9,668 bases of DNA from a virus. Lineage: Duplodnaviria; Heunggongvirae; Uroviricota; Caudoviricetes. The stretch is taken from positions 1 to 9,668 of the IMG/VR virus record IMGVR_UViG_2657245500_000002; one strand, given 5' to 3'. The translations under genes were made by a program, and so were the position numbers. Numbering within the stretch: the first letter of the stretch is position 1; each line of letters begins with the position of its first letter. This document shows positions 5,188 through 9,668 of this stretch, piece by piece. The notes beneath the pieces are model-generated. The model was given only the letters and a program-made list of their open reading frames with translations, was not told the origin of the DNA and searched no databases.

Positions 5188-5373
5188 ATCCTTCTTTTCA
5201 TACCAACCCACCCCGCCCCACAGAATGCAGGGCAATACTTCGAGTTACCCGGCAGTGGTCAGGGGTTAAGTAGCCAGCCCGAGGCGTATGAACATGACGG
5301 CGGGAACACTTTGTATAACAGCGCAGCAGGTTTTTGTTCCGCTCCCCCGGCGTTAAGGGGAAATGAGGTCAAC

Positions 5374-5526
5374 ATGGATACTATCGATCTTGGCAACAGC
5401 GAATCTCTGGTATGCGGCGTGTTTCCCAACCAGGACGGCACGTTTACCGCGATGACGTATACCAAAAGTAAAACGTTTAAAACCGAAGCTGGCGCGCATC
5501 GCTGGTTAGCAAGAAACTCCGACTGA
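5374..5526 (+). CDS. YdfA/YdaF-like small protein (50 aa)
   Basis: Internal ATG at 5374-5376 of ORF track 5182..5526, with GAGG 5 nt upstream; the longer listed ORF would start inside the terminator hairpin. Product MDTIDLGNSESLVCGVFPNQDGTFTAMTYTKSKTFKTEAGAHRWLARNSD resembles the ~50-aa proteins encoded next to dicA/racR (recalled). Confidence 0.6.
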   Translation: MDTIDLGNSESLVCGVFPNQDGTFTAMTYTKSKTFKTEAGAHRWLARNSD

Positions 5527-6178: not shown

Positions 6179-6512
6179 TTCACCCTCCTGAGGGTTGGTA
6201 ATTAAGGAGTTCTCCACGGGTCAGGTGGAGTGCGTGCGCCGGACACGGGTGAGCATCCGGCACTGACAGTTTACTGAAAAGGATATATCCCTGAAAAGTC
6301 AGGGCATAACACGAAAGCGCCCGGCGAAGTTAGTCTCTCTGTATAGGTCGTCATTAAATTTTCGTCGACCGCGCGCTTCCGGTTGTGGCACTCCGCGAAA
6401 TGGCGCGGCGGTAAGTATGGCGGGGTTATTCCTTCCCCGTTGAGGACACCGGGTTGTCAGGTTGACCATACGCTTAAGTGACAACCCCGCTGCAACGCCC
6501 TCTGTTATCAAT

Positions 6513-6570
6513 TTTCTGGTGACGTTTGGCGGTATCAGTTTTACTCCGTGACTGCTCTGCCACCCTTTTT
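6513..6570 (+). ncRNA. dicF: DicF small RNA (53 nt plus U-tract)
   Basis: tttctggtgacgtttggcggtatcagttttactccgtgactgctctgccaccc followed by TTTTT matches the DicF sRNA of the Qin dicB operon as recalled. It sits immediately upstream of dicB, as in Qin. Confidence 0.7.
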
Positions 6571-6574
6571 AAAG

Positions 6575-6735
6575 TGAATTTTGTGATGCGGTGAATGCGG
6601 CTATGCGCACGCGGAACAGTTAAAACCGTAAAGTGGTCTTTTACGGGGCGTAACGGGCATCCTTCTGTATTCCGGCGTTAATTGTTAACTGGTTAACGTC
6701 ACCTGGAGGCACCAGGCACCGCATCACAAAATTCA
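6575..6735 (+). repeat. 19-bp perfect long-range inverted repeat bracketing the dicF-dicB spacer
   Basis: 6575-6593 (tgaattttgtgatgcggtg) is the exact reverse complement of 6717-6735, with a 123-nt spacer. The left arm starts 5 nt after the DicF U-tract; the right arm ends 5 nt before the dicB SD (GAGGA 6741-6745). Confidence 0.6.
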
Positions 6736-6752
6736 TTGTTGAGGACGCGATA

Positions 6753-6941
6753 ATGGAAACGTTATTACCAAACGTTAATACGTCTGAAGGTTGTTTTGAT
6801 ATTGGTGTTCTGCTCAGTAACCGGGAGTTTACGGAAGATGCCATTAAGATGAGAAAATATGAACCTTATCTTCTCAATGATAATTCCATACTTTCCAGAA
6901 TTGCCCTTCTTGAACTTGGTATTATCGGAGAACAGCAGTGA
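6753..6941 (+). CDS. dicB: Cell division inhibitor DicB
   Basis: ORF track. ATG at 6753 with GAGGA 7 nt upstream. The 62-aa product METLLPNVNTSEGCFDIGVLLSNREFTEDAIKMRKYEPYLLNDNSILSRIALLELGIIGEQQ matches DicB in length and in the N-terminus as recalled (METLLPNVNTSEGCFEIGV...FTEDAI). Confidence 0.8.
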   Translation: METLLPNVNTSEGCFDIGVLLSNREFTEDAIKMRKYEPYLLNDNSILSRIALLELGIIGEQQ

Positions 6942-7126
6942 CTTCAGCATTTGCACTGGTGATGACCGTTTTTCTTATAACGGGTGAGCCACAAAATGTG
7001 ATTACCGGAATTTATGACAGTAAGTCATCCTGCATTCAGGTAAGGGACGAACAAAAAATCCCCGGTGAATGCCTCCCGTTAAAAAAAGTATCGCTGAACC
7101 TGAATAACGAAATACCGGCTGGATAA
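6938..7126 (+). CDS. ydfD: YdfD-like small membrane protein (lysis protein family in Qin)
   Basis: ORF track. GTG start overlaps the dicB stop (GTGA at 6938-6941). 62 aa with an N-terminal hydrophobic segment (SAFALVMTVFLITG). Assignment rests on position, size and features, not a verified alignment. Confidence 0.55.
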   Translation: MTSAFALVMTVFLITGEPQNVITGIYDSKSSCIQVRDEQKIPGECLPLKKVSLNLNNEIPAG

Positions 7127-7221: not shown

Positions 7222-9668
7222 ATGAGTAAAGTCTTTATTTGCGCCGCTATTCCTGACGAACTGGCAACAAGGGAAGAAGGCGCTGTGGCTGTAGCCACAG
7301 CCATTGAAGCTGGCGACGAACGCCGTGCTCGAGCAAAATTTCACTGGCAATTCCTGGAACATTATCCGGCTGCTCAGGACTGCGCTTATAAATTTATTGT
7401 CTGCGAGGATAAACCCGGCATACCCCGCCCTGCCCTCGATTCCTGGGATACCGAATATATGCAGGAAAATCGCTGGGATGAGGAGTCAGCTTCCTTTGTA
7501 CCGGTCGAACCTGAATCCGATCCGATGAACGTCAATTTTGACAAGCTGTCCCCTGAAGTACAGAACGCAGTCCTGGTTAAATTCGACACATGCGAAAACA
7601 TCACCGTTGATATGGTGATTAGCGCACAGGAATTACTACAGGAAGACATGGCAACATTCGGCGGACATATCGTTGAAGCGTTTATGAAAATGCCAGAAGT
7701 TAACTCCATGTATCCTGAACTTAAACTGCATGCCATCGGGTGGGTTAAGCATAAATGTGAGCCTGGCGCTAAATGGCCTGAAATTCAGGCAGAGATGCGC
7801 ATCTGGAAAAAACGCCGCGAAGGTGAACGCAAGGAAACCGGAAAATACACGTCTGTTGTTGATCTCGCCCGTTCCAGAGTAAACCAACAGAACACTGAAA
7901 ACGCTGCTGAAAAAAACGGAGCTGTCACTGTTGCCGTTCGCCGCGAATACAAACAGACATGGAAAACTCTCGACAATGAGCTGGCCTGCGCCCTCTGGCC
8001 CGGTGATGTGGATGCGGGAAACATTGACGGCAGCATCCATCGCTGGGCAAAAAATGAAGTTATCGACAACGACCGCGAAGACTGGAAGCGTATCTCGGCA
8101 TCAATGCGCAAACAGCCTGAAGCACTTGGCTATGACCGTCAGACTATTTTTGGCCTTGTCCGTGAACGTCCGATCGACATTCACAAAGATCCCGTGGCGC
8201 TGAACAAATACATCACTGAATACCTGACTACAAAGGGCGTGTTTGAAGATGAAGGAACAAATCAGAGCACAACTAATACTCTCCCGTCGCCAGTACCAGA
8301 AGCTGATGCAGTGGAAACGGCAATGCCGGACAACGAAAAAACCGAATGCAAAGTGGAAGTCGAACCATCTGTAGAGCGTGAGGGGCCGTTCTACTTCCTC
8401 TTCACCGACAAGGATGGCGAAAAATACGGTCGCGCAAACAAACTTTCTGGTCTGGATAAGGCGCTGGCTGCCGGGGCAACTGAAATCACGAAAGAAGAAT
8501 ATTTTGCCCGCAAAAACGGCACATACACAGGTTCACAACAAAATACTGATGCATCTGACACGACCGCACAACCAGACCTGGTAAAAGTTACCGCTGACGA
8601 AGTAAACAAAATTATGCAGGCAGCCAGTATCAGCCAGCCTGACGCCGATAAGTTGCTTGCTGCCTCTCGCGGAGAATTTGTTGCAGGGATTAGCGACCCG
8701 AATGATCCGAAATGGGTAAAGGGGATTGAAACCCGCGATTCTGTGCACCAGAACCAGTCAGAAACGGAACAGTACGACCAAAAAGCGGAACAAAACAGCC
8801 AAAATGCGTTACAAAACGAGCCAGAAACGAAACAACCTGAACCAGTAGTGCAACAGGAACCGGAAAAGATCTGCACCGCCTGCGGTCAGACCGGCGGCGG
8901 CAACTGCCCTGATTGTGGCGCGGTGATGGGCGACGCAACATACCAGGAAACATTCGATGAAGAGTATCAGGTTGAAGTTCAGGAAGATGATCCGGAGGAA
9001 ATGGAAGGCGCTGAACATCCACACAAGGAGAATGCTGGCAGCGCTCAGGATCACGCCAGCGATAGTGAAACTGGCGAGACGGCAGATCCCTTAATTACGG
9101 TGAACGGTCATCACGTTATCACATCCACCAGCAGGTTTTGGCACCATCTGATGATTGACCTTGAAACAATGGGCAAAAATCCTGATGCCCCGATTATCTC
9201 AATAGATGCAATATTTTTCGATCCGCAAACCGGAGATATGGGACCGGAATTTAGTAAGACTATCGATCTGGAAACTGCTGGCGGAGTCATTGATCGGGAC
9301 ACCATTAAATGGTGGCTTAAGCAATCACGCGAAGCGCAATCTGCCATTATGACCGATGAAATCCCGTTAGATGATCCGGAGGAAATGGAAGGCGCTGAAC
9401 ATCCACACAAGGAGAACACTGGCGGCAATCAGCATCACAATAGCGATAATGAAACTGGCGAGACGGCAGATCCCTTAATTACGGTGAACGGTCATCACGT
9501 TATCACATCCACCAGCAGGTTGTGGCACCATCTGATGATTGACCTTGAAACCATGGGAAAAAATCCTGATGCCCCGATCATCTCAATAGGTGCAATATTT
9601 TTCGATCCGCAAACCGGAGATATGGGACCGGAATTTAGTAAGACTATCGATCTGGAAACTGCTGGCGG
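7222..9668 (+). CDS. YdfE/RecE-like large exonuclease-family protein, 5' portion (at least 815 codons, no stop in window)
   Basis: Frame open from ATG 7222 (in-frame TAA at 7213-7215, GAGG 10 nt upstream) to the window end; absent from the ORF track because unterminated. N-terminus MSKVFICAAIPDELATREEG. Contains CxxC-x7-CxxC (8872-8916) and, from ~9100, a DnaQ-like DEDD Exo I motif (HHLMIDLETMG). Position after dicB-ydfD corresponds to ydfE of Qin or recE of Rac; the nuclease core lies beyond the window. Confidence 0.6.
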   Translation, partial: MSKVFICAAIPDELATREEGAVAVATAIEAGDERRARAKFHWQFLEHYPAAQDCAYKFIVCEDKPGIPRPALDSWDTEYMQENRWDEESASFVPVEPESDPMNVNFDKLSPEVQNAVLVKFDTCENITVDMVISAQELLQEDMATFGGHIVEAFMKMPEVNSMYPELKLHAIGWVKHKCEPGAKWPEIQAEMRIWKKRREGERKETGKYTSVVDLARSRVNQQNTENAAEKNGAVTVAVRREYKQTWKTLDNELACALWPGDVDAGNIDGSIHRWAKNEVIDNDREDWKRISASMRKQPEALGYDRQTIFGLVRERPIDIHKDPVALNKYITEYLTTKGVFEDEGTNQSTTNTLPSPVPEADAVETAMPDNEKTECKVEVEPSVEREGPFYFLFTDKDGEKYGRANKLSGLDKALAAGATEITKEEYFARKNGTYTGSQQNTDASDTTAQPDLVKVTADEVNKIMQAASISQPDADKLLAASRGEFVAGISDPNDPKWVKGIETRDSVHQNQSETEQYDQKAEQNSQNALQNEPETKQPEPVVQQEPEKICTACGQTGGGNCPDCGAVMGDATYQETFDEEYQVEVQEDDPEEMEGAEHPHKENAGSAQDHASDSETGETADPLITVNGHHVITSTSRFWHHLMIDLETMGKNPDAPIISIDAIFFDPQTGDMGPEFSKTIDLETAGGVIDRDTIKWWLKQSREAQSAIMTDEIPLDDPEEMEGAEHPHKENTGGNQHHNSDNETGETADPLITVNGHHVITSTSRLWHHLMIDLETMGKNPDAPIISIGAIFFDPQTGDMGPEFSKTIDLETAG
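8986..9668 (+). repeat. In-frame tandem duplication, 384-bp period, within the large exonuclease-like ORF
   Basis: Copy 1 is 8986-9369; copy 2 starts at 9370 and is cut by the window end. About 95% identical over the 299 bp visible, with differences clustered at ~9030-9065 versus ~9414-9449. Each copy encodes DDPEEMEGAEHPHKEN...HHLMIDLETMGKNPDAPIISI.AIFFDPQTGDMGPEFSKTIDLETAGG. Confidence 0.8.

Follow-up and report, generated by a model that had tools for sequence, protein, structure and literature searches.

The locus raises the question of why the interval between dicF and dicB is bracketed by a long, perfect inverted repeat, and whether that repeat acts as DNA or as RNA. The window, by which we mean the whole 9668-nt stretch that was analysed, is an exact match to a lambdoid prophage region of E. 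coli JE86-ST05 adjoining yccA. The DicF sRNA lies at 6514-6565 (+) (Rfam RF00039, 70.1 bits) and, on the Rfam match and a comparison with the K-12 sequence, occupies 6514-6570 (+) when the terminator U-tract (6566-6570) is included. The dicB gene, a 62-codon ORF at 6753-6941 (+), is identified by a Pfam match (PF05358, E 4e-38) and by its annotation in the E. coli record of identical sequence; its ATG is at 6753 and its Shine-Dalgarno (SD) sequence, GAGGA, at 6741-6745 (+). Sequence matching this dicF-dicB module region is present in ~87% of complete E. coli genomes. An inverted-repeat search and the sequence itself agree with the first-pass annotation that 6575-6593 (TGAATTTTGTGATGCGGTG) and 6717-6735 (CACCGCATCACAAAATTCA) are exact reverse complements, 19/19, with 123 nt between them, and the distances it gave to the flanking elements are also right: the U-tract is followed by AAAG and then by the left arm from 6575, and the right arm ends at 6735, five nucleotides (TTGTT) before the SD. 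This is the longest inverted repeat in the window (spacer 3-300 nt); in 200 first-order Markov simulations the longest arm measured 9-14 nt, and the analytic expectation for a perfect inverted repeat of at least 19 nt is ~1e-5. In RNA, two outer pairs, G6574.U6736 and A6573-U6737, extend the repeat to a 21-bp helix, here called P1, with its left arm at 6573-6593 (+) and its right arm at 6717-6737 (+). The minimum-free-energy structure of 6500-6780 pairs both arms (z = -4.75), in keeping with the stem that had been proposed.

Pattern scans of viral, genome and phage collections yielded ~150 loci, from which we obtained 99 unique elements and 66 unique arm pairs. The first-pass annotation had staked its reading on covariation of the arms among homologues, and covariation is what we found. 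In the main alignment (A1: 77 distinct elements, structure-blind MAFFT), P1 is 93.6% paired, a figure lowered by the misplacement of the bulged A of the L009-like group, which a second alignment, A2, corrects, and 12 of its 21 pairs vary on both sides. The whole structure is 96.3% paired in the 77 elements, against 29-46% when the partners are slid by one to three columns, and none of 500 shuffles matches the observed pairing, the number of both-side changes or the covariation score. A cleaner alignment of 39 sequences gives 97.1% for P1. These pairing counts are counts of sequences, and as the sequences are related they overstate the number of independent events. RNAalifold predicts P1 unprompted. 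The stems of Klebsiella and Enterobacter lineages still measure 20-21 bp with 9 of 21 positions altered, and at one locus (L041, arms ACAGACCTTGCAATGCAGTG/CACTGCATTGCAAGGTCTGT) all nine of the positions that are unlike those of the window are compensated. Closer to the window, the K-12 Qin arms (left GAUGUGGUG, right CACUGCAUC) are the same except that two G.U pairs stand in place of a C-G and a G-C.

Could the repeat instead act as DNA, in the form of MITE-like terminal repeats, a protein-binding palindrome or a cruciform? A perfect 19-bp repeat around a 123-bp segment that recurs in unrelated gene contexts and in different phage types, P1-like phages included, has the look of such an element. 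Against this, the segment is not flanked by a target-site duplication, its left and right flanks being AAAG and TTGT, and its arms, which fall into 37 distinct haplotypes, covary rather than being conserved in sequence, so that both hallmarks of a MITE-like element are absent. G.U pairs, which would be mismatches in DNA, are tolerated, as in the two of K-12, and they are in clear excess: non-Watson-Crick cells of the 19-bp core comprise 67 G.U and 24 A.C, and those of hairpin Hb (described below) 75 G.U and 4 A.C. The strand asymmetry and the fixed site just upstream of a ribosome binding site, oriented along transcription, point to RNA, and a covariance model built from the dicB/kil-type elements (R1) scores the window at 169 bits on the + strand and 38 bits on the - strand. 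This last comparison and the G.U asymmetry also dispose of an RNA made from the minus strand. The covariation, the G.U excess and the strand scores of R1 therefore rule out a DNA palindrome, MITE ends and a minus-strand RNA, and we give a DNA-level role a very small probability. With both partners altered in 12 of the 21 pairs and G.U accounting for many of the departures, the repeat is a real, non-random + strand RNA helix that is maintained by selection.

The 123 nt between the arms had been regarded as a spacer. This description has to be given up: the interval is a conserved multi-helix RNA, and the repeat is its closing helix. The whole module spans 6573-6738 (+) (Rfam RF02076 and model R1) and has the consensus order P1, hairpin Ha, helix P2 closing a variable arm, hairpin Hb and hairpin Hc, with compensatory changes in P2, Hb and Hc. 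Ha (6597-6612 (+), GCGGC...GC.CGC, from RNAalifold) falls within a nearly invariant 5' block, AAUGCGGCUAUGCGCACGCGGAACAGUUAAAA; its pairs are invariant and give no covariation signal. P2 (6613-6673 (+), also from RNAalifold) pairs 6613-6615 with 6671-6673 and changes from A-U to C-G in 13-19 sequences. The arm that it closes differs in sequence and length between lineages, and in the window it holds a hairpin at 6626-6646 in the minimum-free-energy fold. Hb (6674-6700 (+), GGCGUUAAU...GUUAACGUC, with a conserved loop containing GUUAACUG) has four pairs that change on both sides and 97.7% of its cells paired, and corresponds to a helix of the Rfam STnc100 family. Hc (6702-6716 (+), CCUGG-AGGCA-CCAGG), likewise an STnc100 helix in Rfam, is 100% paired with U-A changed to G-C in 9-13 sequences; it runs straight into the right arm without an intervening unpaired nucleotide and might form a coaxial stack with P1. 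A candidate pseudoknot would join CAGUUAA (6617-6623) to UUAACUG in the Hb loop (6685-6691); the two segments are near-invariant, with one U.G variant and one mismatch. A scan of 6250-6950 found no promoter-like site on either strand and no terminator-like site on the + strand. An intrinsic terminator or attenuator was accordingly rejected, the right arm being followed by UUGUUGAGG, and a search for a tRNA-like element found none. The literature searched takes the dicF-dicB interval for a spacer rather than a conserved folded RNA.

Conservation of the interior might also reflect a leader peptide (ATG at 6595, MRL[C/S]ARGTVK...) whose translation the stem controls, since an ORF of 11-46 codons runs from a conserved ATG in 75 of the 77 variants. 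Conservation stops after the first 10 codons, the very stretch of the nucleotide-invariant block, and loop positions and the covarying P2 helix account for the variable sites in it. Beyond it the C-termini are unrelated and the conserved 3' block is read in different frames. With a fourfold variation in length, the ATG lost in two variants and no SD, a peptide is a most improbable explanation, and we rejected it for lack of conservation past the invariant block.

The fold has relatives. A lenient search with Rfam RF02076 (STnc100) matches 6577-6730 at 36.5 bits (E ~1e-6), below the gathering cut-off of 47 bits. The homologues score 28-44 bits (K-12 Qin 34.4, Rac-SA53 43.8, P7 43.0), and L127, which belongs to the same dicB-type alignment, clears the cut-off with 47.8 bits. 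The consensus closing helix of STnc100, its Hb-type hairpin and its CCGGG-AGGCA-CCCGG hairpin align to P1, Hb and Hc, respectively. Reciprocally, model R1 finds bona fide STnc100 copies (53-95 bits with Rfam) at 38-73 bits, E 1e-10 to 1e-21. The module thus has an STnc100-like fold, sharing with STnc100/PasD the closing helix GcaUGGUG/CACCAugC, the Hb and Hc hairpins and the conserved loops. The differences are equally clear. The match covers model positions 21-154 of 206 and leaves out the 3' part, which in bona fide STnc100 genes is their own terminator; the window copy has neither promoter nor Rho-independent terminator of its own, and so is not a stand-alone STnc100 gene, but is part of an operon, with an ORF immediately downstream. 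P1 measures 19-21 bp, against 4-11 bp for the closing helix of STnc100, and the Ha hairpin differs. Elsewhere, STnc100 and PasD copies are reported as Hfq-associated prophage sRNAs, the PasD RNAs belonging to lambdoid prophages (PMC13192938, PMC12370729), and in EDL933 the Rfam-annotated STnc100 copies are not adjacent to the DicF copies. None of the papers searched links STnc100/PasD to dicF-dicB or to the kilR leader. It seems, then, that dicB, kilR and other prophage early genes share an operon-embedded, divergent RNA of the STnc100 family that was previously undescribed. We note separately that bona fide STnc100 copies form tandem arrays of 3-5 copies per 1-2 kb at Pantoea, Leclercia and Enterobacter loci (L133 894-2010, L153 5406-6576, L136 2583-3377), at two of which (L136 and L153) they are interspersed with isrI matches.

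The contexts of the homologues separate the module from both of its neighbours in the window. The repeat-bounded segment is still present in phage sequences that have neither the DicF antisense part nor dicB: it immediately precedes kil in Shigella phage POCJ13, kilR in Rac-SA53 and terB in P7 and D6, and it is found in Klebsiella phages as well. The downstream ORFs are unrelated, encoding DicB, Kil, a Rha/Ash-family protein, TerB and small unknown proteins. When unique copies are divided by the length of the closing stem, those with long stems (17-30 pairs in a bulge-tolerant count; 17-22 bp in operon-embedded copies) have no promoter and no terminator of their own (0 of 68 for each) and 66 of the 68 have an ORF within 75 nt. 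Among the 20 with short stems (11 pairs or fewer, stand-alone STnc100 stems being 4-11 bp), three have their own promoter, eight their own terminator and six an ORF within 75 nt. Operon embedding does not always go with a long stem: the P7 and D6 copies upstream of terB are embedded with stems of only 9 bp. Even so, the distribution suggests that the extended stem defines RNA ends through RNase III where promoter and terminator are absent. In P7 (L004, 1304-1388 and 1499-1618) the short-stem module belongs to the ban operon, just upstream of terB, and ~110 nt upstream of the module there is an unannotated match to the tRNA-Sec model (46.6 bits, cut-off 47). A Citrobacter braakii locus (L154) has matches to C4 antisense RNA (80 bits) and isrK (67.5 bits) at 5208-5396, within ~250 nt of a long-stem copy.

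In the lambdoid prophages of E. coli, the terminator of DicF or of a DicF-like RNA (...GCCGCCCUUUUUAAAG) normally stands ahead of the module. The Rac prophage of K-12 supplies the closest parallel: an sRNA, a DicF-like terminator, UUUUUAAAG, the same long-stem module and the gene of an FtsZ inhibitor follow one another in the KilS-kilR operon. The sRNA upstream of the module is the Northern-verified KilS (RefSeq b4833, PMC8175672), which in our coordinates (L155, NC_000913.3 1418100-1419100, minus strand 403-306) ends at the U-tract of the DicF-like terminator. KilS is the positional counterpart of DicF, since its terminator lies directly upstream of the Rac long-stem module. The Rac module scores 146 bits with R1; it differs from that of the window in a bulged A in the right arm, and kilR is unrelated to dicB. 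No RNase III site has been reported in the Rac stem. A site with rnc-dependent coverage at 1418510 (Gordon 2017) was considered as a cut in it and rejected, as it lies 8 nt upstream of the KilS 5' end, outside the stem.

What would such a stem do in the dicBF operon? RNase III requires about two turns, ~20-22 bp, of double-stranded RNA (PMC6212723), and the 19 perfect pairs of P1 with the outer G.U and A-U make 21 bp, so that the helix of RNase III size that had been postulated is present, conserved, covarying and on the + strand. Two 3' ends of DicF are known from Balasubramanian et al. 2016 and a 2022 review, which refer to Faubladier 1990 for them (PMC5069750, PMC9438474): Rho-independent termination gives the 53-nt form, and a 72-nt form is said to owe its 3' end to RNase III acting on the full-length mRNA. 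A length of 72 nt, measured from the annotated K-12 DicF 5' end (583 in locus L006), leads to 654, the 10th nucleotide of the K-12 left arm (645-663), and in the window to ~6584, again the 10th nucleotide and the middle of the left arm; this end is arithmetic from the secondary citations and holds within ~2 nt. Qin carries the orthologous prophage operon, the same type of locus, and by these citations its reported 72-nt DicF would thus end in the middle of the left arm. The claim that the stem sets the DicF 3' end therefore stands for the read-through, 72-nt form and falls for the major 53-nt form, which is made by the Rho-independent terminator. We infer a cut after ~6584 on the left arm of P1. 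Under the canonical rule of a 2-nt 3' overhang (PMC6212723) its partner would follow ~6727 and place the 5' end of the dicB mRNA at ~6728. According to the in vivo rule of Altuvia et al., the two positions flanked by the staggered cuts form base pairs, of which at least one is usually G-C or C-G (PMC6212723); if the 72-nt end is at ~6584, these positions are G6583-C6727 and U6584-A6726. No report of right-arm cleavage was found in the literature searched, in which the 1990 primary account is represented by citations.

Other evidence for RNase III at this site is coarse. Table S1 of Gordon 2017 lists a dicF-dicB intergenic site, 1649470 (NC_000913.3), flagged as known, with 0 and 0 reads in the wild type and 26 in the rnc mutant, from unstranded data of very low coverage. 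It falls 8 nt past the left arm, in data that are not nucleotide-precise. An older review also counts the dicF-dicB intergenic region among RNase III substrates. Because the published 72-nt DicF end falls in the left arm, the role of the stem as an RNase III substrate is not new; it is essentially old knowledge, in substance since 1990. The best-documented RNase III cut in the operon is a different one, upstream of DicF (PMC10448788): it creates the 5' end of the 190-nt DicF, whereas the 5' end of the 53-nt DicF is a product of RNase E (Ragunathan 2023, PMC10448788). In the window, a G+C-rich hairpin (ACCGCGCGC...GCGCGGCGGT) is possible at ~6367-6412, and the published RNase III cut at the 190-nt 5' end would be expected near 6381, within it.

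Combining these observations, we think it likely that P1 closes a ~165-nt module related to STnc100/PasD and that read-through RNA is cut by RNase III in the middle of this helix, with three products. Transcription from dicBp that passes the DicF terminator would allow P1 to form, and RNase III would cut both of its strands near the middle, after ~6584 and ~6727, leaving 2-nt 3' overhangs. The upstream product would be a ydfABC-dicF RNA that ends 14 nt past the terminator U-tract, from which RNase E would release the 72-nt DicF; the downstream product would be the dicB-ydfD mRNA with a 5' UTR of ~25 nt; and between them a core of ~143 nt, closed by a 9-bp stem, would be excised. Folding of the predicted product (6585-6727, 143 nt) gives the same junction, and the 9 bp left of P1 are the size of an STnc100 closing helix. 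In the window the supply of read-through RNA may be increased. The stem of its DicF terminator (6527-6565) pairs GGCGG with CCACC and has a C.A mismatch where K-12 has CCGCC; the Rfam alignment marks the mismatch 'v', the consensus scan passes over the site without calling a + strand terminator, and two further loci (L009, L032) have the same variant. A weaker terminator would let more read-through transcripts reach the RNase III stem.

The arrangement resembles that of the precursor stems of 16S and 23S rRNA in E. coli, where the flanks of a structured RNA pair over a long range in a helix of ~20 bp or more and RNase III, by cutting both strands, excises the enclosed RNA from a polycistronic transcript. 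The analogy is one of mechanism only: there is no sequence relationship, and the RNA enclosed here is far smaller. The RNase III sites of early polycistronic phage RNA (T7 R1-R5, the lambda N leader) are also placed just upstream of a gene's ribosome binding site; cutting them separates cistrons and can alter how stable the message that follows is, or how it is translated. Such sites consist of local hairpins, many of which have internal loops and are cut on a single strand, whereas the dicF-dicB helix encloses a 123-nt multi-helix domain.

How processing would affect dicB is less clear, and two readings have to be weighed. The first-pass annotation suggested that the arms may gate dicB translation, and in the strong form of this idea DicB would be left untranslated on read-through RNA until the stem is cut by RNase III or melts. 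Partition-function folding gives the idea some substance: the unpaired probability of the dicB SD is 0.18-0.25 in read-through RNA and rises to ~0.8 once the predicted cut is made and to 0.70 without the left arm, a pattern seen in both the window and K-12. Occlusion of the SD arises because the helix places the C/U-rich end of the terminator beside GAGG, and in the minimum-free-energy structure CCUU just before the U-tract pairs with GAGG of the SD. This comes only from computed folding, however; the conserved helix does not include the SD, and the additional pairing, of a U/C-rich with a purine-rich segment, is of a generic kind. The dicB AUG, which sits in a small predicted hairpin with a GNRA-type loop (AUAAUG-GAAA-CGUUAU, 6749-6768), is predicted to be mostly paired in all the transcript forms that we examined. 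Moreover, the module also precedes unrelated genes with different sequences past the arm, and in the kilR leader, which has the same module, the SD is unpaired at 0.77 before the cut and 0.46 after it. The folding of the dicB leader thus speaks for gating and that of the kilR leader against it; as the latter lacks the effect, gating is possible for dicB and is not a conserved property of the module, and we doubt that the stem is mainly a translational gate.

The alternative is that the cut in P1 serves chiefly as an entry point for decay that limits dicB (and kilR) mRNA. It would leave a 5'-monophosphorylated, largely unstructured leader open to RNase E, as for the pnp and rnc mRNAs. The predicted processed leader is indeed short and weakly structured (-12.5 kcal/mol), the spacer reads of 0 in the wild type and 26 in the rnc mutant (Gordon 2017) run in the expected direction, DicB and KilR are toxic, which makes negative control plausible, and decay is what RNase III cuts in 5' UTRs most often lead to (Gordon et al.). 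Two observations weigh against it: an rnc mutant loses, rather than gains, the upstream ydfA-containing transcripts (Ragunathan et al., PMC10448788), so RNase III does not simply destabilise the operon RNA, and decay leaves the conservation of the interior fold unexplained. We hold it possible, but on balance improbable, that decay is the chief role of the cut. Given mid-helix cleavage of a module-closing stem, exposure of the dicB mRNA to decay is as plausible an outcome as gating of its translation.

Taken by itself, the RNase III stem adds little, since it has been known in substance since 1990. DicB and KilR are the two classic prophage proteins that block E. coli cell division, and a conserved structured leader common to both means that the basis of their post-transcriptional control may be shared and open to test. 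Pathogenic E. coli contain STnc100/PasD RNAs in abundance, and the existence of two types of copy, operon-embedded with a long stem and stand-alone with promoter and terminator, provides a simple genetic handle on what the fold does. A more speculative extension, to which we give a low probability, is that the dicBF and Rac KilS-kilR operons have a third product, a ~143-nt RNA of the STnc100/PasD class freed by RNase III, the long stem replacing the promoter and terminator of stand-alone STnc100 genes. That no wild-type reads cover the spacer makes it somewhat less likely that an excised core accumulates stably, although the locus is expressed at a very low level and the libraries may have lost short RNAs. 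If the extension is correct, prophage operons for division inhibitors carry an sRNA, a structured RNA and a toxin as one processed unit.

A minor observation concerns the distal part of the window, where two ORF fragments, at 8957-9094 and 9371-9478, have a peptide in common (IRRKWKALNIHTRR...LAA). From the sequence, this points to a direct repeat ~414 nt apart inside an exonuclease (recE-like) gene.
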